DNA of 61,683 nt from Psammoneis japonica (lineage: Eukaryota): positions 62,001 to 123,683 of the forward strand of contig QPGO01000208.1 of NCBI GenBank assembly GCA_008632985.1, given 5' to 3'. How positions within the stretch are numbered: the first letter of the stretch is position 1; each line of letters opens with the position of its first letter. The position numbers and the translations under genes are program-made. Below are positions 5,786 to 58,939 of the stretch, in pieces. The notes beneath the pieces are model-generated. The model did not search any database. It was not told the origin of the DNA and was given only the letters and a program-made list of their open reading frames with translations.

Positions 5786-5999
5786 GTGCGTGTGGCTTTT
5801 CAACCATAAGACTAACGTTCTAAAGACAATAGAGGAAAGACACCGATCGGAATTATGAACCATCATTCTCCGGAGAGACAGCGTCTAAATTTTCAACTAA
5901 TGGACTACAGTAGCTCGAAGTAGATACAAATAGAAATTATACACATTATGAATTATGAGCATACTTACCTTGCTTACCTTACCTATTTCTTCACTTCCC

Positions 6000-9562: not shown

Positions 9563-9989
9563 CCTTATCTTCCAACCTGACTTGCGGCAACCGGCATCAC
9601 CTCACAATCGTGTTGTCGGGATGCTGCGGGTGGATAATCTTTTTTGGCGGGGGATTCCGAGCGTTATCTTGGCGACATTAAAAACCTATGAGCTTGAATA
9701 ATATATACTTTATCCTCGTATTCAAACTTAAAGCATGTTTAATTCAAATCCTCAACGTCCAACCTCAATTGCGCTCACATTTTCGACGAGTGAATCGAAA
9801 TTCGCAAATCAACGTGTCTGCCGGAAATGCGTTTTGGTGCGGACTTCCCAATGACGGGAAGCCAAGAAATGGCGTTTTGAGGAAAGCCAGCTGCATTCTT
9901 TTAGATCGATGGCTCTCTCTCTCGGAAGCCCCCAATCCCAAACGCAACAAGCACAAGAGCCAGATCACCCCAGTCTAAAAAAATTCGTC

Positions 9990-16073: not shown

Positions 16074-16713
16074 CTTGTGCTAAGTACCAAGATGTCGAAT
16101 TCAAGTTGTAAATAAAGATGATTAAAAAATCGATATGCGAATGTCTTCGAATGGGACAGTTTTGGTCTGTCAGGGCCATAGGGAGGACTTCGTGTTTTTT
16201 ATGTCGTGCTGTAGTCGTACGAAAAGCTACCGTCAACGCTTTGCGGGAAAGCATGAAGACGTTACCGGTACCTATATGCAGTGCTTTTCTTCATTGTTGC
16301 ATTGCTCCCCTGCAATCCTGCTTCTTTAACAACCCCAGAAGTAATCGGCACAGCGTTCCGTCGAGAATCGTTTCAATTTCGGATGCGGATTACTTGTGAA
16401 CTGGCTTTCCACAGTGCTGCCATGGGACTCTGATTAGAAGGGTCAGCATTCCTCAGCAATCATATATTTGTTGCTGTTTAGACCGCTTGGGGAAGTGTAC
16501 CTGCAACTGACGAGTTCGCGATGTAGTGAAAGTAAGGGGGTTCTGTGTCGACTATTTGGTGGCGAGTTTAAACGCTTTGGAATTGTTATCGTTCGTCGAG
16601 ATCGATTCTCCACTTTCTTTTGCCCAGCCCGTGTCCGCATTGCGTCTCCCTTGGTTACTACACCCATTTCTTTTTATAATGCTAACCACCGCCAATCTTC
16701 TTGATGGTAGTCT

Positions 16714-29500: not shown

Positions 29501-30000
29501 CTCTTGTTCAAGACATCTGTCACCTCTGGTTCCCTCCAAATGCAGGTCATTGTCAACCTTCATGGGTGGGGCTTTGATCTTGTGCACCAGCTCCACAAAT
29601 GTCCAATGCTTCTGCTTTTTGATAGAACATTCAGCGTGGTTGCATTGATCACCTGAACAGAGACTGTTTTCAACTTTGGTGCACAACTCTCAAATCTGCC
29701 ATTCTTTGCCCACTTCTTTGCCAGCCTGATGATGCCCTTCTTGTTCTTGCATCTCACAAACAGCTGAAGGTCTTTGTCAGTCTTTGCTGACTTTGTGTTG
29801 CTGTCCATCAATGGTGCAATTGTGTCCATGCCTGCTTGATCCATCTTGCTTGGAAATCCTGCAGAGACCAATGTTGTGCACCAAGAATTAGATGCTGCAT
29901 TACTAAAAAGAGTGAGAAAAGAACTAGTCTCATGGTGAGGACGACTTTCGGGGCAACTGTACAGCCAAAGTGTTTTGCGGACAGACAGCAGACCACAGAT
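26510..30000. mobile_element. Decayed repeat element, copy A (CpG/TpA-depleted)
   Basis: Colinear similarity with 33.7-34.75 kb, e.g. TTTGAAAGCACAGTTCAAAG..CAGTTTGGGTTTCTGGAAACAAGCCAAGGAGGGAATGATGATCTCATTGCTTGCTTCAAAGAGCACTCTTGTGACTGGTGG at ~27990-28090 and ~34035-34140. Confidence 0.7.
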
Positions 30001-32401: not shown

Positions 32402-32689
32402 ACAATCCGTGTCACCTTATAGCAAATCGGTCGTACAACACAAAGGGAGATTGGCACCGGACTGATGTCATGGTGAGAACACGATCTTCGTATCCACGAT
32501 TAACTAAAACTGTCAGCCTCGCTCAGTTCGCTTCGCATGTCATTACGGACGACTGACGGACGCTGTCGTTATTCATTGTCCGTGCGTCCGTCCCTCTTTT
32601 CAAAGAATGGGCTCTAACGGCGCAAAAAGTCAGAGGATAGATTGCGTCCTCCCATGCTCTTGACAAGAATTTTTTTTAAGGCTCTCCTG

Positions 32690-35600: not shown

Positions 35601-36100
35601 GAATCATGTGGCTGTGCTCAATGAAAACAGATCCCATGGTGGAGCCTCTGGGATTTTGATGCATGCTTCTTTGTTCTCAACTCCGAAGGGAGAGCACGTT
35701 TGCCTGATTGTGAAGTCAGCAGAGCTGCTCTCTCACCTTGGCGAAAGGGTCTGCAATGTGGCTTGGTTGGAGACAGATCATCCAGTGGGACCATCAGTTC
35801 AAGCACCACTCCTGCCGAGGCCTCTCATTCCTTTTCTTCCACTGCCGAGCACAAGCAATCCCCAGCCATCATCTCGAAGCTTTGGTGCATTGCACAACCC
35901 CATGGTGTGACACGTGACGCGCACAGCCAACTGCAAAACCACATTTTCAACAAAATGCACACAACATCAACCAACTTGTTACAGGCCCTGCAAATGCCAA
36001 GTGCCATGCAGCAGGGATAAGTTTTGGGGTCGCAAGCAGAGGGGTCGCGCATCGCACACTCACAGCATGGTGATGCCATCCACCACGTTTGCTTCTGCCT
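32690..36100. mobile_element. Decayed repeat block: probable Ty1/copia gag fragment followed by repeat element copy B
   Basis: 'DGTSFLQ...IRCWKCNEVGH' (truncated zinc knuckle, ~32865-32935), then sequence homologous to 27.2-29.05 kb. CpG/TpA-depleted. Confidence 0.65.
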
Positions 36101-36432
36101 GGCCTGTTCTGCCGATCTTCGCGAACGCGCATCCGCTTGCGCAACGCAAAAAGCGCGCAAAGACGCAGGCGAGCTTTTTCGTCGAGCGTTGAGCGTGATC
36201 TCCTCGAGATCGCCGACAGAGCGAGACGAGACGCGGGTTGCGGTGTTACCTTTTATGCTATAGTCATTCTTGTTGCTTTCGATTCATTCTTATAATACCA
36301 CTCATTGATTCGTTCACCCTTCAAGGCCATCCTACTCACCTACGACAATTGATTTGTAGATCGCTGCTGCTGGTAGTGAAAAATCTGTAGGAAAGGCTAG
36401 AGAGAAAACGGTATTCGAAAGAAAAAAAAATA

Positions 36433-40559: not shown

Positions 40560-41600
40560 CATACACTTCTTCAGATTCGAATAAACTATTTTGAAACAGT
40601 CGTGCATCATCAGCGCAAAAACCACATAACTGCAGATGCACACATGCCAGCCCATGCATGTTTTCTCCCACAGGAACCTCAGCATCTTTTGTGGTCTCTT
40701 TTGTTGTCTGTTGGATGATTGAGAAAGACAATTGGAGGAAAACAAAAGAAGTTTGTTGTGAAAAATTGGAGCAGCTTGAGCACAGTGGATTTGTCACAAC
40801 ACACAAAATGGAGAGAGAATGACCATGGTGCAAGAACACCAGTGCTGCAGGCACCCCTTGGTGTTGAATTGCCATGACAACTGTGCAAAAAAATGTTTTT
40901 TTGTGCACACTCACCTTTCAATTTTTGAAAAGATCAAATTTGAAGGAGTTGTTCAGTGTGCCAAACTGCACAGAAAATCTCGGCCTCTCGCTGATGGATT
41001 TCTCATCACCCGGGGATGGAACAGGCCATGTGGTGTGACAAGCATCTCAAACATCAGCAAAAAAGAAAAAGAAGCACAGCAATGCAAGTGAGCAGCTCTT
41101 TCTCTGGATTGCAAAGAAATCTTCCAAAACAGCCATCTGCCACAGTGTTTGCAGCAGGCAAGTGCCCCCCTTGCAGCAGCGGCTGGCATCAGCACAATGC
41201 AAGGCAGTTTTTTTGTGAAGAGAGAGGTTTCTGTTCAAGAATGTGGCACCTGAAGATCCCTGAATGGGGCTGGATCAGTGCTGTGCATGTTTTCCATGCA
41301 CAAGGTGACAGCCCAGGTGTGCTCATTTTTAAAAAGCAATGCCGCCAGAGGTGCCAGCAGGGGGAAGCAGGAGATGGTCGTGATCATTTTGCACGCGGGG
41401 GTGAGTTTTTGCATGGTGTGCACAACAAAACGGAAAGCACACCACAGTGCCTCAAGGGAACTCCAGAGAGCAGCATGGAAACAGGTTGGTTCCATTGTGA
41501 TGTGCTGTCATCTCTCATGGGCTTCTTTTTGGCCGAGCAGGTGGTGGAGCAGGCCCCAGCGAGCCAGCTGATGGGGTGGTGGTGCCATCTTGTCCACGAC
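40560..41600. mobile_element. Decayed CpG/TpA-depleted block of unknown origin
   Basis: Same dinucleotide signature as the other blocks; no family recognised. Confidence 0.45.
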
Positions 41601-41699
41601 TCGTGAATGAAACTCGCAGTCCCGAACTGCTGTCATCGATGAGAAGCACGAAGCACGTGCTACATGCTGCATATTTTTTTTTCTGATGCGAATCCAACC

Positions 41700-43700
41700 A
41701 TGGCAATGAATAGACGGAAGGCAAGAGCAATTGCTTTGGTGTATTATATGTTACGGGGTACAGAGGCTAATTTTGATCCGTATGGTTTCCAATCGGGGCC
41801 TGATGTGGGGAGCTCTTTTGCAGGAGGCATGTTCTATGACGCTCAAGAGCACTTGCTGTATGTCACGGGTGAGTGTGAAAAGAAGTGACGGCATGTTTTG
41901 CGCTTTCTCTGTAAATTCTAATATAGAATCCTAACGTATGTACGACTCAATACGATAGGAGCCACTTATGGGCGTTTCTTTACGAGCTATCAACAATCCG
42001 GCGCTTTGCTACCTCAAGAACAAGTCGACGACTCGGACTGCTTCATGGCGATTTATAAACTTAGTGGACAAGATGCTGCTCCGGCATTACAGAGTACACA
42101 GCGATGGGGAACAGTTCCGGTACCCGAGGCATGTAGTGCTATTGCAGTGACAAGAGCAAATGAGAAAAACAGCAGACACGTTTATGCTGTGGGAAATTCC
42201 GAAGCATCTGGGTTCTTGACACAACTCGCAGACAATGGCGAGGAAGCCGCAGTCTTTGGGACCTTGACGGACTTTGAAGTGAATTCCTTTAATGGTGGTG
42301 GCACGATAACCACAATACTCCAGGGTGGAAGCTTGCTACGCCCCAGAAACGGACTTCAGTATCCTGTAGCAATCACCATGGATCCCGATGAGAATGTTTA
42401 CGTTGCAAGCATGCTGAGTTTCGATAAGCAGTTGCGAGAACGTTCCCCAACCAATAACGACAATGTTGATGTGAAAAGTGGTGGACACTTGAAAGATGGG
42501 AAGAACTTTTTGGTGGCTGTTGAACGGCTCTCCCGGGCGGCAGACGTGGAAGATGTTGCAACTGGCTTTCGAGAAACACTAAAGACAAACTGGACGTTTG
42601 AAGAAGGTGCTTCGGATGGTGTCATTTTGAGTTCCTTGCTGTACGTCAATAATGAGACATTGCTAATGGCGGGCTCAACCAAAGGCTATGGGCTCGCATT
42701 TGGAGCGAATTTGAAGTCCGTGGACGATTACGACGGTTTTGTGACAAAGATACACCCGCACACTGGCGTTGTGCTCGTTCCCGACAACACGACTGACGCG
42801 GAGCACAAGTTTGCTTCTTCTTACTCCGCGCGCATTGAATCGTTGCCCCATCAAGATGACTTTGTAAATGGTCTTTGCTTCTGGGAAGAGGACGTGTACG
42901 TGGTGGGGACGACTGTAGGACCTCCATTGGACGATAACTCGCCCCAAGGTTCAAGCGCCTTTATCCGGAAATTGCGTTTGGACACTCTCGAGGTGGAGTG
43001 GAAAGTCGACCTGGGTGGTATGCGTGAGTTGATGGAATCGGAACGCTACGATCCTGGTTATGTTCAAGGAGTTGGCTGTGCTGTGACGGAGGACGGCCAA
43101 CATGTTTATGTCGCCGGCAACGTTCTCGATGGTGCAATGTTGGATTTGCCCAGTCAAATTGTGTCCAAAGGTGGAGATGATATTTACGTTGTACAACTCA
43201 ATGCCGACCATGGAGACATTAATTTCGCCACACAAATCGGGACCGAAAACAATGAAAGGCTGGCTACGGGTGGCGGTATCGCTGTGGACAAGGAGGGTCA
43301 TGCTATCTTGTTGGGCAACACCGAAGGATCCATGCTGAGAGAAAAGGACGACGCCTTCACTGATGTTTTCTTTGTTTCTGTGTCTCGTACCACTGGACAA
43401 CATACAGATCTGGCGAGCCCTAAAAGTGGCAGCTCTAATGGTGTTAGTGCAACAGCAGCAATCATTGCAGTGGTTTGTGTATTGAGTTTCATAGCCCTTG
43501 TTGTGGCTGCATTCCTTTTCAGAACGTCGAAAAGAAGCCATACGGGCCGCCAGCTCGTACGTCAGCAGTCTTCCTTTGCCGATTGGGTGCAACGGCGGCG
43601 GTCAAGTGCCAGTTCCAAACCTGAATCCGATTTCGAGGAGCCCAGTAATAAACAGGAAAGCGAGACTGACACGGGGAAGAGCGTGCCTGCAATTGTCTAG
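41700..43700 (+). CDS. Secreted single-pass membrane protein with SBBP-like beta-propeller repeats, two exons
   Basis: Signal peptide, intron ~41869-41958, 'GGDDIYVVQLNAD.G.I.F..QIGT..NE....GIAVD.EG.A...GNT.GS' repeats and a C-terminal TM helix. Confidence 0.75.
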
Positions 43701-43925
43701 AGAGAGCGACTCGATTTCGGCTTGTAGATGTGCAAGGTCCCATCCATCCCAGCCAGAGCTTTTACATTAAGATTTTATCTGCAGCGTTAAGCTACTTTCT
43801 TTTTTAGTGTGCGAAAGAATGATGTACGGCATGTAGAGTCTTGTGAGATTGAGCAATTGAGTCCAAGTTAGATTCGCTAGAGCCAGAGTTAGCACATAGA
43901 GAGAGGGAAAGGACCATCGATAGTG

Positions 43926-43927
<2 letters not shown>

Positions 43928-43963
<36 letters not shown>
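43928..43963. repeat. (CT)n microsatellite, followed by a CTAG/TAG-rich low-complexity tract to ~44031
   Basis: Directly visible. Confidence 0.95.
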
Positions 43964-43966
<3 letters not shown>

Positions 43967-44196
43967 CTAGAGTAGCTACTAGCTCTAGAGCTAGTAGCTA
44001 GTAGAATAGAGTTAGTAGAGCCTTAGAGTAGATCGATTATGCGGTAGCAATCACGACGCGGACAAGCAGACAATCATCCCAGTGCGACAACACGTACGAA
44101 AAGATAAGAGCGCAGCGGCAGCAAAAATGCATCATCAACAACTCCTTTTACTGTACAAGAAAACGAAAAAGCCGAACCAAACTGCGTCGTCGCAAG

Positions 44197-45744
44197 ATGA
44201 TCAATCACAACTTTCGCTCACCATCGTTCACGAGACTGGTCAATGGTCTCAAGAAGTTAAAGAAGACTGTGACTACTGTGGAATCTTCCGCGGGTGGAGT
44301 CCTTTCTTCCTCCATCATGTCCGAGGAGGGATCTTCCGCTGTATTTTATGGAGGCTCTGTCGCCTACAATACCCGGAAGGCCTTGCCGCTGCTTTTAAGT
44401 GATAAAGATCTTCATTCGAAGCTCGTCAATTTCAAGAACGAAGCCATGCCTGGTGAAACTGAAGCGGACGTGTACATTCGATCCAAACTTCACTGGACAG
44501 CAGAAGCAGCCCTTGCGTTTTGTAAACAAATGAATGTCGATTATGCCATTGCAGAAGGAGGTGCCGCCGGTCCCACCTTTCGACCAAAAGGACTCGACAA
44601 GGGTTTTGCGGCTATTGCCATTGCTGGGCGAGACGACGACGACGACTCGTCAGTCCGCTTGTTGGCGCAGACGGTGGTCCACTCGACGCATGCCAATCGT
44701 CAGGGGAATATGCGACTGTTTGCGGATGCTGCTGCCGATTTGGCGTCCGATGCAATTGGAATTCCAAGTGATGCTGTGGACGAAAGCAATAATGAAATGA
44801 ATGCGTCATGTATGCCTCTGGATCGGGCAACGCATCTTCGACGAGATGAAGAAGCTATTCGAAACCTCGAGAAGCAGGAAGACTCCAAATATGTTATTGT
44901 CCGTGGTAGAGAATGCTTGTTTGCATCGCCTACTGAACTAGCTCTTGTTGGTCTTCAAGATGTACCGGACAATAGCGAAAAGACATTTCTTGGACTCGCT
45001 TCCGATGGCTCTGCGATCTTTAGTGTTGACCTGGATGATGATCAAGATGATTCTTTGTTTGATGTAGCAGGAAGCTTTGCGGACACTCGGACACAAGCGC
45101 CGCTCCTGAACGAGAAACACAACGAGCTTGCGTTGTATGCAACCGCCTTGTCACAATGGAAAAAGACACACAGGCGCTGTTCCAGTTGTGGTTCACCGCT
45201 CATCACAATTCAAGGTGGATCATGCCAAAGGTGTACAGGCTGCGGTGTCATGAGTTGGCCTCGTCAGGATCCCAGCATTATTGTTCTAGTCACCAATCGA
45301 CTCAAGAAAAACCGTGCTCTACTAGCGAGATCACCGCGCCATCCACCCAAAATGCACACGGCTCTGGCTGGCTTTGTCGAAGCCGGAGAAACATTTGAAC
45401 AAGCGGTTCATCGTGAAGTGTTTGAGGAAACCGGCGTGCACATTGATATGGACTCTGTGTCGTACATTGGATCTCAACCGTGGCCTTTTCCACGTTCTTG
45501 CATGATTGGTTTTCACGCCACGGCGGATGAGAATCAAGAGACTAACATGGACGAGGAAGAATTGGTAGAACTTGCTTGGTTTGACATTGACGACGTGGTC
45601 AAGGCATCGACCGTTCCTGGAGCGGTTATGCAACACGAAGTGGCAAAGAAAGCAATGGAAAATGATCCAACATTGCCGTTGTTGATTCCTCCGAATGGGG
45701 TAATAGCACGAAAGTTGATTGATAGTTGGCTCCATCAATCCTAG
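44197..45744 (+). CDS. Fusion of CinA/PncC (NMN deamidase-like) and NudC (NADH pyrophosphatase)
   Basis: N-terminal 'TVESSAGG...GSSAVFYGGSVAY...AEGGAAGP'. C-terminal 'CSSCG...CTGCG' zinc site, 'PRQDP', Nudix box 'GFVEAGETFEQAVHREVFEETG' and the NudC signature 'SQPWPFP'. Confidence 0.88.
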   Translation: MINHNFRSPSFTRLVNGLKKLKKTVTTVESSAGGVLSSSIMSEEGSSAVFYGGSVAYNTRKALPLLLSDKDLHSKLVNFKNEAMPGETEADVYIRSKLHWTAEAALAFCKQMNVDYAIAEGGAAGPTFRPKGLDKGFAAIAIAGRDDDDDSSVRLLAQTVVHSTHANRQGNMRLFADAAADLASDAIGIPSDAVDESNNEMNASCMPLDRATHLRRDEEAIRNLEKQEDSKYVIVRGRECLFASPTELALVGLQDVPDNSEKTFLGLASDGSAIFSVDLDDDQDDSLFDVAGSFADTRTQAPLLNEKHNELALYATALSQWKKTHRRCSSCGSPLITIQGGSCQRCTGCGVMSWPRQDPSIIVLVTNRLKKNRALLARSPRHPPKMHTALAGFVEAGETFEQAVHREVFEETGVHIDMDSVSYIGSQPWPFPRSCMIGFHATADENQETNMDEEELVELAWFDIDDVVKASTVPGAVMQHEVAKKAMENDPTLPLLIPPNGVIARKLIDSWLHQS

Positions 45745-45889
45745 ACAATATCATTTATTTTGGTAAGGATGAGAGATGAATAAGAACTTGACAGTTTCTT
45801 TACTAACACGTGCTCACCTTTATTTCTACTCCTACAGCACAAGCGACGCAATCACTTAGATCCTCCGAAGTTACCCCTCTTCTTCTGTT

Positions 45890-46998
45890 ACTGACGTTCA
45901 ACGCTCCCAACCTCAGCCAAAGTACAAATTAGCAGTGTCTGCCAGGTTGAGGCCAACGGGTGCCAAGTCTGCAGGTAAATCCAATTCATCGCCTTGCACA
46001 GTATGCGCCCCTGATAAAGGCAGAGAAGAAGGAAGCAATGCCACCCCTGCTCCGTATTGTCCCGATCGTCTTCAACGAGGGCGCGCGGAAGAGCCAAGGG
46101 CGTCTATGCGTTTGCCCGCTCGGTTCCGGTCAACTCATCGGGCCCAAAATCAATCATGCTTGTCACACGGGCAATGCGGTCGTGGAACCCCCACTGCGGA
46201 TGCCACCCATTCAATCATGACAAGTGTGGCTAATTTCGTTCCGTCCTCAATTTGAGGCCGACCACCCATTGAGATGGGGAAAGTTCACACCATACACATA
46301 CCCAAATGGCGAATCAGCGCCGACAACGTGCGGTTGCCAGTCTCGATCTCCCCGATAAAAAGAGGGGCATCTTGTGTATCCTTCGCTCGCCCACTACCTC
46401 CAGGTACACCCCACGTAGACAACACAATGTCTACTAGAGCAAACTCGCTGGAACGCAAGGATCCAAATGTACCATGGGACGTGCATACGGCATATCGTCG
46501 GGGACGAAAAAGCAGGGACGGGCTGCATTTGTCATGCAAGTAACAAGAGCAACAACGACAGCGGATTGTTGAAAACCCGATGACTCGCATAGACGCACCA
46601 AATTTTTTTGGTTTCGGGAAATGCATCCAGCTTGACGCCTTTTCCAGTAGCCATGCACAGTTCACCAAGCGAAGCGGCTTTGCCGTGAGCCACACGCCTT
46701 TCGGGAACACTTCTTCAATGCCAAGAAGTTCTGCAGGACCGCCAAAGGTATTATTGTTTCGAATACCTTCTTCATCCAGCTATTTGTAGGTCTCAACAGC
46801 GGCGACTGCCTTCTATTAGAGTTTTGGCAGAATCGCATGCATCCAGGAATTTGGAGTGCAACACCGTGTCTTCGATTTCTCCTCGACCTCAGTGTTGGAC
46901 GCCTGTGAACCTTCCAAACAGCTCGTCGTTTTCTTCGTACCGGAGGACGAGTTACTGGTAGTATCGGACATTGCCAGACTCGGACCCTTTGCATCCAA
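45890..46998 (-). pseudogene. Disrupted ORF, possibly of the PD-(D/E)xK/Uma2-like fold
   Basis: Broken frames with 'APLFIGEIETGNRT'. Weak motif-level resemblance only. Confidence 0.25.
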
Positions 46999-47189
46999 AC
47001 CACTCGTATCCTACATACTACAGCAGGACGTGTCGGATTTCGTCGGGCTCGCCATCGTGGCGTGCAAGTAGTCTTTGCAAGCAAATCAACGCAAAAGGGT
47101 TGCCTTGAAGAGATCACAATGCTTAAATTCGAAGCTGAAGTGCAGAAGAGAAGGAGAAGAAGTGTGAGTGTCTCAAGCTGGGGCCTAGA

Positions 47190-47385: not shown

Positions 47386-47541
47386 ATCCCCTCGTCACAA
47401 ACCAGCGCTAGGCGCCCTCTCTGAGAGGAGGACAATGCTGCCCTGTGCAGGCACTAGACTACGTCATACAGTTGTCATCATTGCATTGAGGCTCAGCATT
47501 AATACCCAAGATCAAGGACGCACCCGATCCACCAAGACCCC

Positions 47542-47804
47542 CAACACCACAGTCTAAATGGTTGGCGGTGCCAGTGATCATTCAAAAATTCGTGCGCAGC
47601 ACTTGAAAAATCATGCGCGCGAAACCCAATTTCTATTCGAACGATTGCATTAACAATGTAAATCCCCTTTTTCAACACCACAGTCTAAATGGTTGGCGGT
47701 GCCAGTGATCATTCAAAAATTCGTGCGCAGCACTTGAAAAATCATGCGCGCGAAACCCAATTTCTATTCGAACGATATTGCATTAACAATGTAAATCCCC
47801 TTTT
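47542..47804. repeat. Tandem duplication of a 131-bp unit (47542-47672, 47673-47804), with a decayed third copy within ~47885-48080
   Basis: CAACACCACAGTCTAAATGG...GTAAATCCCCTTTT repeated; copy 2 carries a 2-nt insertion. Confidence 0.92.
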
Positions 47805-50800
47805 CTCCTGGAATTCAAGACGACCCTACCATTCTTCATACCTGGGTTCGTCACGAAGAAGGAGCGATCTTTCGAAAAAATGAAAGACTGCATCATGCAC
47901 TTGACATCACGGCATTGGGGCTCAGCATCAACACTGAAGAATGCCAAGGACACACCCTGACATCATCCCCCCAAGACCCCCAACACCACATTCTAAAGGG
48001 TTGGTGGTGGTGCCAGCTGATCATTCAAAAATTCACAAGCAGCACTTGAAAAATCATGCACACAACACCCAATTCTGCTCTTCCTGAGCTGCACTGTTGT
48101 GGACTCCTGTCCTCCTTTTCTCCAGTTCCTCATTTCTGGGAGGATCGTTTCTGGCCATCTCATGGTGGATGCCGCTTCCTGCATGGTCAGCACAACTCTC
48201 CAAACAATGTGGTGGTTTACGCTTGGACCTTGCACCCGACAACGTCACCATGGCTGTTGGCCTCTCAACTGCTGCCAAAGGTCTGGCCATTGCTGCCTTG
48301 GAGCTCCCCATGCAGGCTGTTGTTGTGGACAACAGCACTCAACTTTGCGATCCTTCAGAGTGCTGCTGCTCCGTTCAGGCCCACCATGGTCTCGGGCAGT
48401 GCCTTGGTCCTTGCCCGGGTGTGTGTTGTGCCAGCTTTGACTGCAGCAACAGCTGCATGGTCAGACCTGGTGATCACAGTGGCTGCCAGTCTGAGTGTCA
48501 CTGCCGCCAGCAATGCCGTGCCCACACAGAAATCTTCTTGGGATGTGGTGCCCACCTTGGCTCCAAGACACGTTTCTCATCCCTCCTTGGCTCTTTTTGC
48601 CCAGTTTCCATGTCATTCATGCGTGGCTCTCATGATCTGTTGGGTGCTCTCAAGCCCTCTGACCACTTTGCCAACACGGCACTTGCCCGGTCCTTTGATG
48701 GCCCCAGGGCCCCATCCTGGCTTGTGGTCCCTTGCAGAAGGCCCGCACCAGCAGCAATTTTTTCTTGCCGGCGGGTGCATCACCAGGCAGCCCTGCATTC
48801 CTTGTGCAGCACTGCACCAGGGATCTGCCAGTTCTGTCAAATTTGGCTGATGCCCAGGCAAGTGCTCTAATCTGGTGTTCTCTCCCAGGCATTTTTCTGT
48901 TGCCTCCATGCTTTGACCTCCCGGTTGGGCAGATCTGGTCCTCCTTGATTTCCTTCACAAGTCTCAAGGGGCCAGTCTCACTGCTGTGAGTCAAAACACA
49001 AGTGCTTTGCATTCCACCTGGGCAGAGGACCACCCCCTTCTCACCAAATGGTTCACAGCTGTGTTGGCCTTTCCTGATGAGTTTTGTGTTGAGCTCATGT
49101 TCCTTGCGCCCAGCCTGCTGCTTCTTTGTCCTGCCCGCCCTCACCGCGGGATCTGTCTGTCACAATCCCCACGTCCTCTGACTTGGCTGTGGTTGACCAA
49201 GACATGGCCTTCCAGCCACATGGGGATTGCATCCTCAACAAAGTGGACTCAGACAAACCACCATCCCAGCACCTGGACTGTGAAAGCAAGGCCTGGGATG
49301 GTGTTCACCCCAGCCAACAGCTGCCTCAGTGCATGACCAGAAGAGTGGTTGCTTTGGCCTGTGGCATCATCAATCCCTGGCAGCAAAAAAGCTTTGCACT
49401 TTGAAATGCTTTGCCCTGGGTCACTTCACTGTGTGCTCTCCGTTGACCCTTTCCTGCAGAAGCACTCACCAAAAGTCATCAGTTTGGAGTGTCCAGAGCC
49501 TCCCACCCCTCTCATGACCAACAAAGTGATGCAGCAGCAGATGGCCAGTGGCTTCTCCAGCAGCACTGGCTGCATCACTGTTGCAAGCAAAAGGGAGGAC
49601 AGTGGTGGTGATGGCCTTGCAAGTCAGTTTGCCACATGTCGTACAGCCCATTCTCACCAAGCATCATTTGCCACAGGTGCAGCCCAGCCCAATCCTGCAG
49701 CCTTCACATCAGTGGTGGCACTGGCATCAGAGTGCCCATTTCAGCTGCCCCCCCCCNCCCCCAACTGTTTGCCTCCACCCGGAGTCCTCAAGCCCCCGGC
49801 ATTTGATCTCATGGTGGAGTCTCTGCCACAGTGTCAGGCAGCTGCACCTGGCCAATGGCAATTGCCATGCCAGTTAACCTCGTGTGCACAACGAGGATCC
49901 TGGGTGTGGCTTCCAGGGACACCTCACCCAGGAGACTGGTGTCCCAGCCCATCATCATTGGTCAGCAGGGTGCCACCCACCAATGCTCACACACCCATTG
50001 CTCTGCTGCAGTTGGGTGCTGCCCCCATGTCCCCTTGGTCACCAGCACCACCAGCGCCACTCCAGCAGCCTCCTTCGAGGTGACACCTGCTGTGGTGGCA
50101 GCAACTGCATCAAAGGATTGGCCCTTCTCACTGCTGGCCAGCAACCAGTGAATCCAGGGACCAAAGGCCACAGTGCTGTTTTGTGCCTTCTTGCCTTTTC
50201 TGGAGTCCCACTTTCAAGGTTGCTTTGCAAGTTTGACAGCACAGATTCTTCCAGACAAGTGCAACTGTTTCCTGCTGCATCCATCCCACATTTTGAGATG
50301 CTGTTTTAGGGCAAACACCAGAGAAATTGCAACCACCCACCTGTCCCTGCATCTTGTCACAGGAGCACCTTGTGCAGTCAGGCTCTTTTGGTGCCCCACT
50401 TAACTTTGCCTTCTTTCATGCTGATGCCTTCCAAGCCTGGCGGCAGGCCACTGGACCTTTGATGCTGAACAGTCTTCCACAGCCCTTGGCATGACATTCA
50501 CAGTGTTTGCCCTTGTCCCAACCCTCCCGGATGGCTCTGGGCCGGCATGCCTTCCCAGGGCAGGTGTTGCTGTTACATCCATGGAACTGCTCATGTTGCA
50601 CTTCCAGTGGCTTCTTCAGCTCTCTGTCACAGGGGAGGATGGCTTGACACAATTCAATCAGAGCTGTCTCCAGTTTGACCCCTTCCAACAGCTGTTCTTC
50701 CTGCTTTGCTTGCACGCAGTTCAGCTCCAATGGGAGTCCAGTAACTTCTCTTGCTCCACACACTCACATCAGTTTCTCTGTTGTTTGGCAGAGCTGCTCA

Positions 50801-52724
50801 GCCTTTCATTTGCCTGGAGCATGCAAGACAGCCTTGTGCATCTTGCATCAGAAGCTTCTGGGCAATGCTCAGCCCTTCCTGCATTGAAGCCCACCATCTC
50901 TCACATGCTGGGGCATTGGACTCAGTGCACTGTGGTGCTGTTCAACATGAATCTGCATTTGGACACACACGGCTTCAAGCTGCACCATCAGAGGCTCTGC
51001 TGGTGGCAGCAGGAGTGGCCACAAAAGCCACCAACTGCTGTCTTCTCAGGCCACCCCCATGGACTCCACTGCCAGCAAGTGTCTCAAGTCAGCTGAGGAC
51101 CCTCTGCCAACATGACAGAGTTCACTTGCCGGCAAGTGCCTTTTCAACTGGAAATCTGATGCAAACACCTGCCATTTTTGCAATCTTTTTGCTCTCTTGA
51201 AGTGCAAACCACCCACTGTCTTGACCGCAGGCACCAACAAGCCGGCAAACGTCTGCCTCTGGGTGCTTTGCATCCATTGAAGTGGTGCAAGAACTCAGAA
51301 TTTCTCTGCAAATGACAAAGAGGTGTGTCTGTTTGGAAACTCGGACTTTGAGCCAAGACCATCCCTCCTGAAGGTTGTTGTGGAAAGCTTTGAAGTCAAA
51401 TCACTCTGGTCTTTTCAGCTTGCCAAAGAGGCTCTCTCACACATTCTAGTGCCATCTGTCAAGATGTTTTTGTCTCATCAACATCTTGAGCAGGTTGGCA
51501 ATGCTGTTTTGTGTTTGGTCATGCATGAGTGGGTGTGCTTTCAGCATCCTGAAAAGGAAGTGGGAGAGTTGGTCAGCCTTGAACCAGCCTTGGTGCCAAA
51601 CAAGAAGACTCTTGCGCATTTGTCATTCCAGATCAGTTTGCACACATTTGCCAACCATTGTGGTCGAGGATTGCCCTCATGCCTTGAACACTCAGTGAGT
51701 GGTGTGTCAGGGAACAAGGACAAGGGCTGTAGAGTGCTGGCAAGTGAAGTGGACACTTGCCTCATGACTTGGCTGCTGCACAACATCATCTGGCACCAAT
51801 CTCTCATGAACTGGAAACACTCTTGTGTCTGCACTGCACATTGCCAGATCCACCAAAGGTGATTTCTGATGTTGTCGAAGCCTTGTTTGGGCACTGCTCA
51901 TGTCAACACCAGAGGCTTGGCAAGATGGTCAAAAAGCAGTGTTGAATGTTTTGAAGTCAGCTGCACATTTGTTGCAAATGTTGGACTGCTCCAATTGCAC
52001 TGAGTGCACAAGCAATCCAAAAAATGGTCATGCATGCCTTGGTGGGCAAATTTCTTTGCACTTCCATTGCAAAAGAAGAAGACTTTGCACAATCCAATCT
52101 AACAACACTTGTGTGGCAGGGTGATTGGTGGCACAATGCCAATGAGAAAGCCATTGACTGTGTTGCCACCATTGGTTGTCTTGGCAAAGATGTGCTTTCC
52201 ATTGTCAAAATGACAAGGAAGAGTGCGTGCAATTGCACCTGTGCCATGGTGGTTGCCTTGATGGAGGATGATCCCAAGCTGTTGCAAGAGTCAACAAGAA
52301 CAAAATGATGAACAAAGAGGACAGCAATGATTGGCAAATTTTGCAGCTTTTGCCATCCAGACCTGTTGCTTTCTAGCAAACTCTCTGCATTGCTCTTGAC
52401 TCCACAACAAAGTTGGCCCTGTTCTTGGAGTGCATGAGACTGTTGTGGCATTGACTCAATCAATGTTCTCACATCAGGCTTCAATCTCCTGTGCCACGTG
52501 GCCAGGTGCCCCCCCCCCCCCCTTGTTGCAAACCTTGGGATGGTCTGCACACTCACTCACATTGGTGCCAACAAAATGGAGCAGCCAAAGGCAGCAGCCT
52601 TTGCTTCTTCCCACTCCTGTTGATTGCACAACAAAGCAAGTGCAGCCCCCTTTGCAAATCACTGCGCAATGAACTGAGCAATCAAAAATGTGCTTGCTGG
52701 GTTCTGGGCTGTCTTTGGAATGTT

Positions 52725-52935
52725 CAAAGCCTGGTGCATCAAAGGTGTCTGGTGCACCTCTTCTGCAAATTGCATCTTTGGGATCAGGAAACTGCTTGAG
52801 CCAGGCAATGGAACAGCAACATCCATCAAAGGGCATTGCAGAGGCAGAAGTGTTGTGACACTGCTGCAATGAATCTTTCAGTGTCAAAGCCAATGTGCAC
52901 TTTCCACCACTGGGGGCGCCAATGAGGGCCACCAT
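52725..52935 (-). pseudogene. Relic of a YggC/Yfh7-like P-loop (pantothenate/uridine kinase-like) gene
   Basis: 'MVALIGAPSGGKCTLA...MPFDGCCCS...FPDPKDAICRRGAPDTFDA': P-loop and RRGAP.TFD signature, with Cys at positions that are usually Tyr/His. Confidence 0.75.
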
Positions 52936-53541
52936 TTGGGGACACCAGATGATGTTGTTGCCATTGTTGTTGTTGTTGGCTGTTGCTTTTCCCGGGCTGA
53001 CAGCACTTGTTGAACATCATGAGTGACTGGTTTTCCCATGTGAGTTTCGTGAGCCATTTTTCAGTCACCCTTCTCTTCTTTTTTTTTAGTGGAGTGGCTG
53101 AAATGATTGCGCAGTGACGATGGAAATGCAAAGGAAGGAGAGAAAAGGGAGATGGAGTGTCATGGTGGTTTTTGTTTGTTGGCGGCAGGTTCCTCGTTTT
53201 CGGTGCACGAACATCACTCGAACAGAAATGTTCTTCGGAAGCCATCCACGACTCGGGGCGACGGCGTCGAAACCACAGCAGTTCGCATTTTGCATGTGTT
53301 TTGCTCCCATTCAATGCATGTTGTGTGGGCAGGGCACCACAGAAACGGAAGGAGCGATGATGCGAAGGCTTCGAATTGTTCAGACGTGAACATGAGCACG
53401 CTTGATGGAAACATGTGGTTCGCATCATGGCCATGGCCTTTGCTCTTTGTGCTCACACCCTTCCTTTCATAAAATCAACTTTCAACCAACAACACCTTCC
53501 GTCATCCAGGTCTAAAAAAAAATCAACGAATCATCTCAACG

Positions 53542-54883
53542 ATGCATTTCCCCCACTTCAATTCAGTCTTCGTAGTTCTCTTTGCATCCAGCATCATCAA
53601 CCAATCCTCCTTTCTTGTCAGAGGCGAGACAGTTCACATCGTGAGCAGCAAGGATGCGGGAATGAGCGAACAATGCCCCTTTGCAAACTGGGGAGATTCT
53701 TCTTCATGTGTGGTGGGAAGGACAAATGCCAGTTGGGGTCCTCTCCTTGCCTGGTGCCTGTTCCATTTCGATGTTGCCGGGTCGGCACCACAAACAGCAG
53801 TGGTGGACTCAGCCACCTTACATCTCATGTTCCGTTGGCAAGATGTGTTTGTTTTTGACGAGTTTGAAGATCAACACACGTTTCACCTGGTCACGAAAGA
53901 TTGGGAGGAAGGTGACAAGAACGGGTTTGACCACGAGCATTCTGATTCTGGTGCGACATGGTGGTGGAGTGACAGCTCAACTGAGCCACGAACGAGCTGG
54001 GCAATTGATGGCAGTGACTTTGAACCGGTCCCTTTTGCAACATTTTCTGCACCACTAAGAAGGGAGGCAGTGGGTGATCAACACACGGGTTCGGATGATG
54101 TAGACGTCGTGGTTGACAAGAACTTCATCCAATCCCCACTTGCCAGTCCAGACAAGAACAAGGGCTTTAGATGGGTTCCAGTCCTGGGTGGGACTCCGTG
54201 TGACATTGGGCCCGTAGAATTCTACGTGCGAGCTCCGTAGTACGAGAATTTAATTAATGGATATATTTATCTTCAACATCAAATAAACTGCCAAGTTTGT
54301 GGTGCAATTATGCCTCTTGCCACTCGACGTTTTTGCAAATGCGCCTGCCCTACGCGATTCTTAAGACATTATAGAATCGCGCTTTAACAAAAAATGTCAA
54401 AAGTTGTTGGACGGATCGCTCAATAAGTGTACCGTAAAATGACACAAAATATCGAAAAAATCACGTAGAAATCTACGTGCGCGACATACGACGTGATTCA
54501 AAAAACTATCGATGTCACAGTTCAGTAGTACGAGGTCCCACCTAGACCTGGAACGCGTCTTTATCTTGCTCGGAAATGAGACGACCAAGGAGCTGAATTG
54601 GCGCCACTTCAAAACTCGAGAAGCATGTGAGAGTGTCACCCATCCCACATCATGCAATCCAGTCTTGCAGATCGATCATTCCACAGGAGATTCGTCAGGC
54701 ACTGTTTCTGAAAACGGCGGGCATGGCACAGATTCGTCGAACGCTGTCGCTGAAAATGGACAAGGTGGTGCAGATGGCGCATCCAGTGATGACAAAGGTT
54801 CGAGTGCAGATGGACTTGTTTTGCAATGTCATTTCATGATTGCTTCCTCTGTGATTGTGCCAGCCATCATTTCTTTGATTTAA
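53542..54883 (+). pseudogene. Secreted DNRLRE/CBM96-like protein with GPI-like tail, interrupted by a TIR element
   Basis: 'SKDAGMSE..PFANWG...FDV...VDSATLHL...HLVTKDWEEG...GATW...W..DGSDF'. Removing 54170-54563 restores the frame 'NKG-FILLGNE...FKTREA...PVLQI'. Confidence 0.75.
54170..54559. mobile_element. Non-autonomous TIR element, 390 bp, imperfect ~30-bp TIRs, 4-bp TSD TTTA
   Basis: Left end GATGGGTTCCAGTCCTGGGTGGGAC; right end (reverse complement) GACGCGTTCCAGGTCTAGGTGGGAC. TTTA at 54166-54169 and 54560-54563. Precise excision restores the host ORF. Confidence 0.85.
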
Positions 54884-55319
54884 GGACTGAGCGCCTGTTC
54901 TTTCAGCGTGAATCGAATCTCAGCATTTTGTTAGAAGGACCTGCATGTGAACCATGATTAGCCCTGCTGCAGGTAGAATGCAAGAATTTAGGTGCAGACA
55001 ATGCGTGGAAAATTCTTCGCATCAAACAATGCAAGACTCCTTGAGACTGCCCCCAACAGGCCCAATGCAGAGCGAAGGTGGGCCGCTGCACCCTGCCTCC
55101 CCAAAGTGGTTCAGTTCGCATGTTGCAATGGCAGCATGCTTCCAGGCTACAACTCGTTTGTCAAAGCAGAGGCTCTGCCCTGCCAAGGCTGTGATGCGAA
55201 ATGTGGCTATGACAGCAAGGATCATTGTGCACCATTGCTGCATGAAATGGGTGGACAAGGTTGACACCAGTTGACATGTCGTGCCAATCATTCTGTGTTT
55301 TTCGTGTCTGCGCACAGAC

Positions 55320-56430
55320 ATGGAAACAATTTTGTTTTCAAGCACTGCAATGATGACAACCATTGTTGCTCAAAGAGCCATTGCTGTTGCTGCTTTGACT
55401 GCCACTTGCCACTCCACACAAGCCTTTTCTCCCTTTTCAACAAGAGGACTCCAAAATTCAGCAATTCGAGGGATGCAGAGCTGGCTTTCCTGACATCGAC
55501 AAGCACTGGTCCTTTTGTTTCCATTTCAGATGCATTTGATGGTGGCAACATTGAGCTTTTAGAAACTGCTGCAGCCAAAAACAAGGATGGAGTTGACGTC
55601 ATTTCAAGAATGAAGCCAGATCCATGTGCAGAGCTGGAGCAAGTGGCACACATTTTCAACCCTTTTTTCTGTGATCAATCGCACACATGGACAATGAACA
55701 AAAATTTGCACCATCGTGCACTGCAACACCACATTTGATGGCAAACATTGACACAATGATGAACAGGGCAATGCATCATCCCCCACTGCAATGCATGTCA
55801 TTGACAATGCAGACAAGGCTTCTTGCTGATGTCAGTGCCTGGAATGGAAACACTGTCTTTTTCTCCAAAACTCCATCAGATCCATGTTCTTGGACTCATC
55901 TGGTCAATGCCACATCGCACTGCACACAAACGGCAAATTGAAGTGAACATTCATTTGCACTTAAAATGAGTTGGTGGTCTGTGTTTTTGTCATTTTCTGC
56001 CTTGTTTGTACAAACAACATTTGCAGCCACTTGCGAAACAATGTCGTTTCCCTGGGCTGACCTCGGAGGGCTGCAAACTTGAGTGCGTTGTTGTGGGAAA
56101 TGGCGACCACAAATGTTGGGTCATTCATTGGCAACAACCCAGAGAAAACATGGCCAAATTCTGTGCAGAAGGACTGCTGGAGCATCTGCTTGGTTTGAAT
56201 GGTTCTGCAGATGGAACGGCAACCAAGGATTTGTTGAGGGGACATGCACCCCACATTTTTGCACAAAGTCTGAACCCAATGGCTCCATCCATGGCCACTT
56301 GTGGACCAATGCTGTTGGCAGTGATTTGAGTGGAGAATGGTGTTTTGGCAGGAGATTGCAAAGCTCCCACACTGGAATGATCACCAGAGTGCAATGGACG
56401 AAACGGGTGTGGGTGCCTTTTTGGACTGGG
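55320..56430 (+). pseudogene. Relic of an M14 cytosolic-carboxypeptidase-like gene
   Basis: 'VSISDAFDGGNIE', 'KPDPCAELE', 'WVIHWQQPRENMAKFCAEGLL' (cf. HRQHPGE), 'GSIHGHLWTNAVGSDLSGEW' (cf. GHLRTNA.G.NLNREW) and 'MDETGV', spread over several frames. Confidence 0.78.
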
Positions 56431-57067
56431 GGGTCCTTGCTTGCAGGGGCTCCAAGGTGCCTTTCTCACAGCCTGCTCTCATGCCAACTCCAACGTGCAA
56501 CAACGAACAATTGGCTGCGAACCGGAAGCACCAGGAGATGGGCGCCTCAGCACTTGCTCAAAACAGATTGTCACTGCTTGATTTGATTGTCTTCGTGTGT
56601 TGCTGGAAAATGCCACTCAAAGACTGTCCATCCACCACTCATGAAACAATGCAGTTCTTGGTGTCGCGACGGAAAAGCAGGAGGCAAGAAAGAAGAGTGG
56701 TGCATGCCTGCTCTCCCTCCCTGGGTCCGTCGTGGCGATTCCCGCGATGACGATGTGTTGACTTTTCGTCACGCATTTTGACAGCGCAGGATCTTTCGAA
56801 AAAATGAAAGATCGCGTTTTGGAGTCTATCGTTCCCGCCGCGCCGCTCGTCAACACTGCTAATTTTCTTTTTTCTGTGAAAGGTTACGGATTGATTAGAT
56901 TGCCCACCCTCCCCATACTGTAGATGCACACCCTCCACAGTTGTTGGGCACAGCAAATACCGAGATTGATTCGTAAAATCCATTTGCCGATAAAGGAATC
57001 GAAATCCATCACAAGAACGGTTTCCTCATTAGCAACTGCTTTTCGACTAACTACCGACACGCGGAAA

Positions 57068-58939
57068 ATGAATAGCAATCAAATCTACACGGTCGTACCG
57101 GTTGCGACAGCAGGTGTTGCTATTCTGGGAGGGACAATTTACAAGCGCTTTATTCATATGCCAAATGTGGATACCACTTCACAACGTAACGGCGGTGAAT
57201 TGGTTGCAAGAGTGCTGCAGGCACACGGTGTTGAGTTTGTATTTACACTTGTGGGCGGCCACATATCTCCGATTCTGGTCGAATCGGAACGCTCAGGTAT
57301 TCGAATTATCGATGTTCGTCACGAGGCCAACGCTGTCTTTGCTGCCGATGCCGTGTCACGACTCACGGGAATTCCTGGTGTTGCGGTAGTCACTGCCGGT
57401 CCCGGTGTAACCAACACAATCACGGCTTGCAAGAATGCTCAAATGGCCGAATCACCGGTCGTTCTGTTGGGTGGAGCTGCTGCCACTTTGCTCAAGGGTC
57501 GCGGAGCATTGCAAGATATCGAGCAACTCAAGCTTTTGAGTTCAATCTGTAAATGGACCGCGACGGTTCGTCGTGTGCGGGATATCCCAATCACTCTAAG
57601 GAGAGCCTTTCAAAAAGCCAAGGAAGGAACTCCCGGACCCGTGTTTGTCGAGCTACCAATCGACACGCTCTATCCAATTGACGTGGTGCTATCCGAGGCC
57701 GGGGCCAAACCAAAACCCAGCGATGGTATTGTGAAAAAGATGATCAATTGGTACGTTGAGAGATCCATCAAGACCAGTTTCGATGGTGCCTTTGAGGACG
57801 GTATTGATTTTTCCCCGTTACCATTTTCGTTTCCGAAACACACGGCTACCCATGTGTCCAAGGCAGTGCAAATCATTTCCGATTCTAAGCGTCCCGTCGT
57901 AGTTCTTGGTAGCCAGGCAACGTTACCGCCAACAAAACCAAACGAGCTGCAAGCAGCCTTGGAAAACATGGGCATTCCTTGTTTTCTTGGCGGCATGTGT
58001 CGTGGGTTGTTGGGAGTCAAGAGCGAGATTCAGATTACACAAAAGCGCTCGGCCGCTCTGAAAGAGGCTGACGTTATTCTTTTGATTGGTTCGGTAGCCG
58101 ATTTTCGACTCGGATATGGACGATCCTTTGGAAGACAAGCTCAAGTTATTGCCGTCAATCGGGATTCTTTGCAGCTTTACAAGAATCAACACGTGTTTTG
58201 GAAAGCCAAAATGTCGGTGCAAGCCGATCCAGCTTCCTTTGTCGTGTCGTTATCAAAAGCATTGAACGATGCTAACTATTCTGTTGATAAGTCATGGTTG
58301 TCAACCCTACGCAGCCGAGCCGCAGAGCGTGAAAAAGAAATCAATGCCAAAGCCGAGACTGATGCTGGTTCCGGACATGTGAATCCCTTGCGGCTGTTGA
58401 AAATGCTTGACGAGGAGTTGGAGGATTCATGCATCATGATCGCGGATGGAGGCGACTTTATTGGATCTGCAGCGTACATTCTCAAGCCACGTGGACCACT
58501 CATGTGGCTGGATCCGGGTGCATTTGGTACGCTTGGTGTGGGTGCAGGCTTTGCTATTGGAGCCAAGCTTGTTCATCCTGACAAACAAGTGGTTGTACTG
58601 TACGGGGATGGGTCAGTTGGATTCTCGATTGTGGAGTATGACACATTCAAACGACACAACTTGCCAATCATGTCAATTGTTGGGAACGATGCTTGCTGGA
58701 CGCAAATAGCAAGAGACCAGGTGCCTCGATTCAACACCGCTGTGGCGTGCAATTTAAAGTACACAGACTACCACAAAGTGGTGGAAGCGTTCGGAGGCGA
58801 AGGACATATAATCAAGGATATCGGCAATGCGCAGAAGTTGTTGAAAGCCGCCGCTCACAGTGCAGCACAAGGGAAACCTACTCTTGTCAATGTGATTATT
58901 GGGAAAAGCGACTTTCGAGAAGGCAGCATATCAGTGTAG
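57068..58939 (+). CDS. ILVBL: ThDP-dependent acetolactate-synthase-like protein / 2-hydroxyacyl-CoA lyase 2
   Basis: N-terminal membrane anchor, 'GGHISPIL', 'DVRHE', 'VTAGPG.TN', '[13 protein letters not shown]', ThDP motif 'GDGS...GNDACW', C-terminal 'FREGSISV'. Confidence 0.92.

Follow-up and report, generated by a model that had tools for sequence, protein, structure and literature searches.

Introduction

The earliest report of hypermutation targeted at A:T pairs of nuclear DNA that our searches returned is a 2026 preprint on a single rhizarian alga, the chlorarachniophyte Bigelowiella natans (10.64898/2026.01.13.699255, dated 2026-04-14). According to the accessible part of that preprint, 231 of 302 nuclear mutations in mutation-accumulation lines fell in integrated regions derived from nucleocytoplasmic large DNA viruses (NCLDV) and virophages, at rates of ~6e-7 per site per generation, and 230 of the 231 were A to G or T to C, all 230 on TpA. 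The main target is described there as single-copy and silent, the genome is said to hold 124 clusters that are poor in TpA, rich in CpA+TpG and enriched for reverse transcriptase and DDE domains, and an ADAT2-like DNA adenine deaminase is proposed by the authors. Repeat-induced point mutation (RIP) of fungi is, in the accessible text of its description, a C to T process that acts mainly on CpA and creates TpA (PMC2621366). For the diatom Phaeodactylum, the accessible text of two papers reports that transposons carry CG methylation (PMC2806351, PMC6604790). Here a stretch of 61,683 bp from the diatom Psammoneis japonica (contig QPGO01000208.1, positions 62,001 to 123,683; hereafter the window), of which about one third almost lacks the dinucleotide TA, is compared with these systems.

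The analysis indicates that inserted or silenced segments of this diatom's nuclear genome have probably passed through two domain-restricted transition processes, acting in place and both ending in TG/CA. In a preliminary description of the window it was stated that no account of such a process was known; the bioRxiv preprint, as far as it is accessible, supplies one by reporting TpA to TpG/CpA hypermutation of integrated viral DNA in B. natans. Literature searches returned no description of TpA loss in diatoms. The accessible text of the Phaeodactylum mutation-accumulation paper (PMC6604790) mentions neither TpA nor "transposable", and that of the diatom retrotransposon paper (PMC2806351) mentions none of TpA, deamination, hypermutation and RIP.

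Composition and boundaries of the blocks

Block coordinates were obtained from windows of 500 bp slid along the stretch and from mapping of TA gaps. Eight hypermutated sub-blocks were delimited, which together comprise 20,664 bp or 33.5% of the 61,683 bp (o/e, ratio of observed to expected):

1651 to 3307, block B1a: 3 TA (o/e 0.03), CG o/e 0.25, TG 1.94, CA 1.70
4190 to 5438, block B1b: 1 TA (o/e 0.014), CG o/e 0.18
9903 to 11288, block B2: 3 TA (o/e 0.035), CG o/e 0.42
26510 to 29888, block B3, related to B4: 11 TA (o/e 0.046), CG o/e 0.17
32721 to 36246, block B4, related to B3: 7 TA (o/e 0.031), CG o/e 0.43
40628 to 41660, block B5, belonging to a repeat family of many contigs: 1 TA (o/e 0.015), CG o/e 0.30
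47885 to 54055, block B6a, opening with the decayed copy of a unit (47885-48080): 18 TA (o/e 0.05), CG o/e 0.23
54563 to 56826, block B6b: 10 TA (o/e 0.066), CG o/e 0.48

The blocks contain 54 TA where ~830 would be expected (0.26% of dinucleotides, o/e 0.04), as compared with 1,661 TA in the 41,018 bp outside them (4.03%, o/e 0.57), a density ~94% below the outside level. CG falls by ~66%, from 2,225 outside (5.42%, o/e 0.99) to 376 inside (1.82%, o/e 0.29). TG rises from 7.21% to 10.78% (2,228 counted inside) and CA from 7.37% to 11.36% (2,347 inside), each with an o/e of 1.77 in the blocks. The losses of TA (3.77 points) and CG (3.60 points) match the gain of TG+CA (7.56 points), so that the sum of the four pyrimidine-purine (YpR) dinucleotides is 24.22% inside and 24.03% outside, and the remaining dinucleotides are barely altered. 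The constant YpR sum fits transitions confined to the YpR class. TG and CA are also nearly equal in each of the eight sub-blocks, indicating strand symmetry.

Single 500-bp windows within the blocks have a TA o/e of 0-0.1, a CG o/e of 0.05-0.5 and a mean TG/CA o/e of 1.7-2.1, compared with a TA o/e of about 0.4-0.9 and a CG o/e of about 1 elsewhere. TA-free gaps of at least 150 bp number 49, nearly all falling in the eight sub-blocks, and the longest TA-free run extends over 1,616 bp, an event with a probability of ~5e-29 at the outside TA density. Most edges are sharp, with the TA count per 100 bp dropping from 3-17 to 0 in one 100-bp step. The o/e ratios of TpA, CpG and TpG+CpA run across the window thus agree with the preliminary description, in which six sharply bounded blocks, poor in TA and CG and rich in TG/CA, were recognized over about a third of the DNA. 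The composition, extent and sharpness of these blocks stand; their continuity does not in two cases, since blocks 1 and 6 are interrupted by unmutated islands (3308-4189 and 54056-54562). Both islands are short elements resembling a miniature inverted-repeat transposable element (MITE) with terminal inverted repeats (TIRs):

3282 to 4216, unmutated TIR element (MITE-like) in block 1: 32-bp TIR, 3282-3313 against 4216-4185, 87.5% identity; TA and CG normal
54176 to 54557, unmutated MITE-like element in block 6: ~20-bp TIRs read in the sequence; TA and CG normal

The two elements have similar termini.

Block 6 differs from the others in being bounded by an exact direct repeat:

47866 to 47887, plus strand, left 22-bp exact direct repeat flanking block 6
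56790 to 56811, plus strand, right 22-bp exact direct repeat flanking block 6

The conversions in block 6 start no more than a few bases from the left repeat. No flanking repeat of at least 12 bp was found at any other block, and alignment of the two ends of block 6 in a collapsed purine/pyrimidine alphabet extended no homology beyond the 22-mer. An insertion of 8.9 kb with a long duplication of the target site, or else a microhomology junction, is what the sequence of block 6 suggests.

Intact and decayed copies

A unit of ~200 bp that is present in both states allowed the direction of change to be read at the DNA level:

47445 to 47645, plus strand, ~200-bp unit in its intact state: located by alignment, outside the block; TA and CG normal

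The decayed copy (47885-48080) aligned to the intact unit over 215 columns with 147 matches, 31 transitions, 19 transversions and 18 gap columns. Of the 11 CG in the intact unit, 9 are CA or TG in the decayed copy, while the 9 TA comprise 4 that became TG or CA, 1 that is retained and 4 that changed otherwise or are gapped. TG is unchanged at 8 of 16 sites and CA at 21 of 28. All four aligned examples offered in the preliminary description were found as written. The pair is small and diverged, and taken by itself it is thin evidence for TpA, with 4 events. Just outside block 6 a stretch of 131 bp is perfectly duplicated in tandem (47542-47672 and 47673-47804); the duplication is itself unmutated and overlaps the intact unit.

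A second comparison was provided by two mutated copies. Positions 27965-28404 of B3 and 34014-34458 of B4 are 84.7% identical, and 94.8% identical when written in the purine/pyrimidine alphabet; 49 transitions and 16 transversions separate them over 439 ungapped columns. In this core, TG of one copy is aligned with CA of the other at 13 sites, compared with a mean of 0.70 after shuffling of columns, and none of 5000 shuffles reached 13. The 13 discordances indicate that mutation took place after the copies had separated, in place and on duplex DNA. An ancestral TA or CG, being self-complementary, could have been converted separately in the two copies, on one strand or the other, which would yield TG opposite CA. 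Self-alignment of the window in the collapsed alphabet gave no further block-to-block homology above the score of shuffled controls.

A decayed Dicer-like gene in block 6

One gene was recognized within the blocks:

51302 to 52290, plus strand, fragment of a decayed Dicer-like gene, located by tblastn; its two segments of RNase III type lie in different frames

The open reading frame (ORF) at 51281-51859 on the plus strand matched Pfam Ribonuclease_3 with an E value of 3.2e-4 and 21.9 bits, under the cutoff of 27, and phmmer matched it to Dicer/RNase III chains of the PDB (E 6e-5). In the protein library 70 proteins were found at E of 1e-3 or below, the best of which was the metagenome protein P0242 (E 2.9e-33, 59% identity). 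When 79 fetched relatives were compared with the window by tblastn, matches were obtained at 51302-52290 alone, in two frames; a pair of RNase III-type segments is also what Dicer-like proteins have. The cluster of one relative contains a protein from the diatom Attheya; P0242 is nearer to the decayed ORF than are the diatom proteins fetched.

The ORF lacks tyrosine throughout its 193 residues. All four tyrosines of P0242 within the alignment are lost, three to histidine and one to cysteine, and a signature aspartate of RNase III is asparagine in the block ORF by a change of CG to CA. Among the 46 differences over 123 aligned positions, 5 revert by changing TG/CA to TA and 11 by changing TG/CA to CG; the others are 14 single transitions, 7 single transversions and 9 that need more than one change. 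Scans of metagenome contigs and viral contigs returned no locus with the coding DNA of P0242.

These comparisons bear on the idea that the blocks never decayed, having arrived as foreign (e.g. viral) DNA already poor in TA and CG, or having lost both dinucleotides through selection. The insertion-like character of block 6 with its 22-bp direct repeat would suit such an origin, as would the lack of a recognizable homologue for most of the block sequence. Yet the ~200-bp unit occurs in both states 440 bp apart, the related copies B3 and B4 differ by TG/CA pairs, the RNase III relative retains the tyrosine and arginine codons lost in the block, and the YpR sum of the blocks equals that of host sequence. 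Selection on coding or expression is also unlikely since the block ORFs are broken. Native composition or selection is accordingly a highly improbable explanation.

Authenticity of the bases

The block sequence was compared with a public sequencing run kept as Logan contigs (X1), which contains a fraction of 0.94 of the sampled words. X1 contigs covering 47747-49302, 49748-52522 and 52509-54114 have no letter different from the window over these 5.9 kb of block 6, at a k-mer depth of 32-35. The length and accuracy of the X1 contigs point to accurate reads, in which a modified base would be copied as its parent base. Thus, the exact match over 5.9 kb makes a base-calling artefact unlikely.

Such an artefact, already raised in the preliminary description, would require that 5-methylcytosine (5mC), N6-methyladenine or hydroxymethyluracil (hmU) in heterochromatin had been miscalled in sequencing or assembly, so that TA and CG were read as TG and CA. 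The library type of X1 is unrecorded and the run is possibly the assembly's own data, which leaves this account some room. It is nevertheless contradicted by the X1 contigs of 1.5-2.8 kb, which show no differences in the blocks at k-mer depths of 32-35. Miscalls, moreover, would not yield TG and CA, respectively, in two copies of a single site, nor coherent replacement of Tyr by His/Cys and of Arg by His/Cys in a decayed gene, nor would they spare a MITE of normal composition within a block. An artefact therefore appears scarcely credible.

In the flanks the X1 contigs and the window disagree at many positions, for instance 14 in 1,764 bases at 40951-42712, and over the 5.9 kb of block 6a at none. 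Their depth is 32-38 in block 6a and 41-53 in the adjoining flank. This pattern of depth and differences could reflect a hemizygous block 6 insertion on one haplotype. A single N at 49757 in block 6a was placed in the stretch 49303-49747, for which none of the X1 contigs listed is identical to the window, and contigs with three deletions, which skip 141, 168 and 134 bases between 48885 and 49439, point to a rearranged second copy elsewhere.

Sequence context of TpA loss

The 54 surviving TA are strongly biased with respect to their neighbors (R, purine; Y, pyrimidine):

YTAR: 33 inside the blocks, 272 outside; depletion 4.2-fold
Mixed, RTAR or YTAY: 18 inside, 894 outside; depletion 25-fold
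RTAY: 3 inside, 495 outside; depletion 83-fold

YTAR and RTAY therefore make up 61% and 6% of the raw survivors, as compared with 25% each for unbiased sequence, and the effect of context on TA is significant by the chi-square test (p 1e-16). CG is depleted 2.4-3.3-fold according to context (p 0.057), with no comparable dependence. The products show a corresponding pattern, the gain per kb being 24.1 for RTGY and 24.2 for YTGY versus 13.8 for RTGR and 13.4 for YTGR. Partition of the mixed sites by hand, with CG assumed to resolve 50:50, gave a ratio of ~3.6:1 in favor of the strand that has a pyrimidine after TA. The depletion by context together with the gain of products indicates that the preferred target is A in 5'-TAY-3', equivalent to T in 5'-RTA-3' on the other strand. 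This apparent TAY preference, for which the largely coding sequence outside the blocks served as baseline, is new here.

Since TA is self-complementary, the letters of the DNA do not discriminate between A and T as the damaged base. That a TadA/ADAT-like or other deaminase turns adenine into inosine is put first, as a guess that is attractive without being probable, because adenine deamination is what the B. natans preprint proposes in its accessible part and because U-A is the natural context of TadA/ADAT enzymes. The alternative is that T in 5'-(R)TA-3' of silenced DNA is oxidized or hypermodified (5hmU/5fU-type) by a TET/JBP-like dioxygenase and then mispairs with G, giving T to C; the composition, context and discordance data fit it equally well. 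The depth of X1 in block 6a (32-38, against 41-53 in the flank) could also be caused by modified DNA that is hard to copy, depth being a poor measure. The thymine hydroxylases of trypanosomes and the hmU of dinoflagellates favor T before A, which again suits thymine; the sites of base J, however, follow a pyrimidine, in contrast to the R-T-A favored here. In addition, the sole experimental precedent would, by the proposal in the accessible text of the preprint, involve adenine deamination. Damage to thymine is considered unlikely. TadA/ADAT enzymes naturally meet their substrate as U33-A34 in the anticodon loop of tRNA, and TAY is fitted better by the UAC loop of bacterial TadA than by the preferences that ADAR (G) and fungal mRNA editing show on the 3' side.

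Loss of CpG in the blocks

The depletion of CG claimed in the preliminary description is present in the blocks; it is weaker and patchier than that of TA, however, with an o/e per block of 0.17-0.48 rising to 0.6-0.8 across 52750-54000. CG loss is restricted to the TA-free domains. Since CG loss is uneven and behaves differently with respect to context, the losses of CpG and TpA are read as separate processes. The CpG change resembles the decay that 5mC deamination brings about in CG-methylated transposons in that CpG goes to TpG/CpA with no flanking preference and in the apparently silent blocks only. Such decay covers the CG half alone, being unable to remove TA, and CG loss is the weaker of the two and is missing from some TA-free stretches.

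The right ends of blocks 4, 5 and 6b (36046-36246, 41560-41660 and 56726-56826) are TA-free yet CG-rich, with 8-16 CG per 100 bp, and in block B6b this applies to the last ~65 bp ahead of the right 22-mer. Each of the three ends sits immediately upstream of a plus-strand gene and may represent unmethylated promoter-proximal DNA in, or abutting, the mutated domain.

What is targeted

The preliminary description had called the process RIP-like and repeat-targeted, that is, a homology-dependent defense in which duplicates are recognized and mutated as in fungi, with another chemistry. Its direction was correctly given as opposite to that of fungal RIP, TA having an o/e of 0.04 and CA and TG an o/e of 1.77 in the blocks. 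In common with RIP, the hypermutation here is defense-like, sharply bounded and saturating, consists of transitions that destroy coding capacity and has struck each copy independently. It differs in that TpA is destroyed and CpA/TpG are created, and apparently in lacking a dependence on duplication.

Several observations are in keeping with recognition of duplicates: B3 and B4 are copies with a related core, the family that includes block 5 has many contigs, block 6 opens with a copy of a unit also present 440 bp upstream, and a second, rearranged contig overlaps 48885-49439. The summed contig depth of B5 is 778 versus ~52 in the flanks, with up to 14 contigs carrying a single indel variant. 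Most of block 6a, on the other hand, is covered solely by contigs identical to the window at a depth near that of the flanks, summed depth not being a copy number. The bin that holds the MITE-like element at 54176-54557 has a summed X1 contig depth of 136,066, with dozens of loose ends at the borders of the element (54169-54237); the element thus belongs to a very abundant family and is yet unmutated. This shows that the MITE-like inserts either postdate the mutation or escape it. Likewise, the intact duplicated unit and the perfect 131-bp tandem duplication are untouched, and the main B. natans target is reported, in the accessible part of the preprint, to be single-copy (10.64898/2026.01.13.699255). 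The flank-like depth of block 6 and the unmutated state of an abundant MITE represented by thousands of contigs argue against a purely repeat-induced trigger and favor particular inserted or silenced domains, so that the repeat-targeted part of the earlier claim is not upheld and a homology-dependent mechanism is regarded as quite improbable.

Among 12 long block ORFs searched against Pfam, one sub-threshold match was obtained, and an ORF of B4 has a weak match to zf-CCHC (E 0.011, under the cutoff). Look-ups in a protein atlas with the ORFs at 33511-34233 and 48050-48847 were uninformative (low recognition scores of 1387 and 822, best matches 0.84 or below), and Rfam and tRNA scans of the window gave no match. 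A second run from the same sample (X2) covers genic stretches only (41958-47113 and 56891-58826) and no block; it is transcriptome-like, although not on record as RNA.

Mechanism and comparison with known systems

Taken together, the results are best explained by two transition processes confined to inserted or silenced pieces of the diatom nuclear genome and acting in place, a reading held with good though not full confidence. The first would be a TpA-specific hypermutation of A:T to G:C that strikes either strand of the duplex, converts TpA to TpG or CpA nearly to saturation and prefers TA followed by a pyrimidine. The second would be ordinary decay of CpG to TpG/CpA, as expected from deamination of 5mC in CG-methylated silent DNA, less complete and patchy. 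A TpA process besides CpG decay had been postulated in the preliminary description, and it is supported by the YpR balance, the TG/CA discordances, the replacement of Tyr by His/Cys and the contigs from accurate reads.

The TpA step is probably enzymatic. An enzyme working on duplex DNA in marked domains would convert one base of TpA per hit; TG:CA would then be absorbing since the product is no longer TA, and hits on opposite strands would segregate to different daughters, so that CG would never be made from TA. Silenced foreign DNA, and not repetition in itself, appears to be the target of this step, and the CpG step appears to reflect methylation.

Editing of a single-stranded RNA or cDNA intermediate (ADAR- or APOBEC-type hypermutation of retroelements) is argued against by the near equality of TG and CA in all eight sub-blocks and by the fact that a duplicated unit that is not a transposon is also mutated. 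The enzymes ADAR and ADAT2-3 of the TadA family resemble the process here in converting A to G with a preference for a 5' U or T. They are RNA enzymes, however, and editing of an RNA intermediate is strand-asymmetric, in contrast to the equality of TG and CA in the blocks. An ADAT2 homologue is the candidate put forward in the accessible part of the B. natans preprint.

Several points weigh against the two-process reading. At the DNA level the polarity of the TpA step is given by just four events in one diverged pair, its other support being compositional or derived from protein comparison with a relative of merely 59% identity. Both the mass balance and the context analysis assume that the blocks started out with the composition of the remaining sequence, most of which is coding. 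The independence and platform of X1 were deduced from contig statistics, and the run, with its unrecorded library type, may derive from the assembly's own sample. None of the 91 block ORFs of at least 90 aa reaches the Pfam cutoff, with no transposase, reverse transcriptase or viral domain among them, and six-frame translation of 47890-56790 with stops written as X matched no Pfam family. Finally, the lone recognizable block gene, being Dicer-like, is host-like and not viral.

The closest described system is that of B. natans. As far as the accessible part of the preprint shows, the two share an exclusive change of TpA to TpG/CpA on both strands, with a bias towards GC that runs against the usual mutation spectrum, and confinement to discrete regions of silent or non-host-like DNA, which form TpA-poor, CpA+TpG-rich clusters and, here apparently, include single-copy targets. 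They differ in host, a chlorarachniophyte (Rhizaria) there and a diatom (Stramenopiles) here, and in the kind of evidence, which for B. natans consists of de novo mutations measured, according to the same text, and here of composition and comparison. A Rho of 0.45 is given in the accessible text for the NCLDV region, whereas the TA o/e of 0.04 found here is near saturation. Strong loss of CpG accompanies the process here, while CpG goes unmentioned in the main text of the preprint. The same main text contains no mention of trinucleotide, flanking or context, in contrast to the preference here for a 3' pyrimidine, although its Table S2 may hold context data. The targets described in the accessible part are viral, whereas the blocks here are insertion-like or repeats, with no viral domain at the cutoff. 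The present work thus adds to the B. natans-type process a new phylum, saturation, joint decay of CpG, the TAY preference and confinement to an insertion-like unit.

It is conceivable, and offered tentatively, that diatoms and chlorarachniophytes share an enzyme-driven editing defense acting on duplex, chromatin-marked foreign DNA, in which adenine is deaminated or thymine modified at 5'-TA(Y)-3' until TpA is erased, and which in diatoms operates jointly with CG methylation to drive both self-complementary YpR dinucleotides to TG/CA. If true, A:T-directed genome editing would be ancient and widespread among eukaryotes as a counterpart of RIP and APOBEC, and the trinucleotide preference could single out the responsible deaminase. 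Candidate enzymes must reproduce the TAY preference. The signature in a diatom suggests that the process is not confined to one species and may be widespread in the Stramenopiles, Alveolata and Rhizaria (SAR), including ecologically dominant phytoplankton. A TA o/e near zero, an excess of TG/CA, a constant YpR sum and YTAR survivors together provide a footprint by which silenced insertions may be found. In such blocks TAA and TAG stops are missing from every frame, as are Tyr codons, so that long spurious ORFs arise and homology searches fail to reveal transposons and viral inserts for what they are.

Genes between the blocks

The genes between the blocks are long ORFs poor in introns. Among the best 120 matches of a NUDIX/CinA protein, all eight named organisms are raphid pennate diatoms at 49-59% identity, namely Cylindrotheca (two species), Nitzschia (two), Pseudo-nitzschia, Mayamaea, Amphora and Fistulifera. 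For an ILVBL-like protein the best match was 75%, with no close named relative. The protein matches thus identify the host as a pennate diatom, distinct from B. natans. The ORF at 6000-6989 on the minus strand contains an ADP-ribosyltransferase exoenzyme domain (PF03496, E 9e-12) and is adjoined by a 117-bp direct repeat (5669-5785 and 5962-6078, 99% identity). Two FG-GAP repeat paralogues, at 13056-16079 and 30479-32416, both on the minus strand, have ~68% DNA similarity over several hundred bases. These FG-GAP repeat genes lie outside the blocks and are of normal composition.

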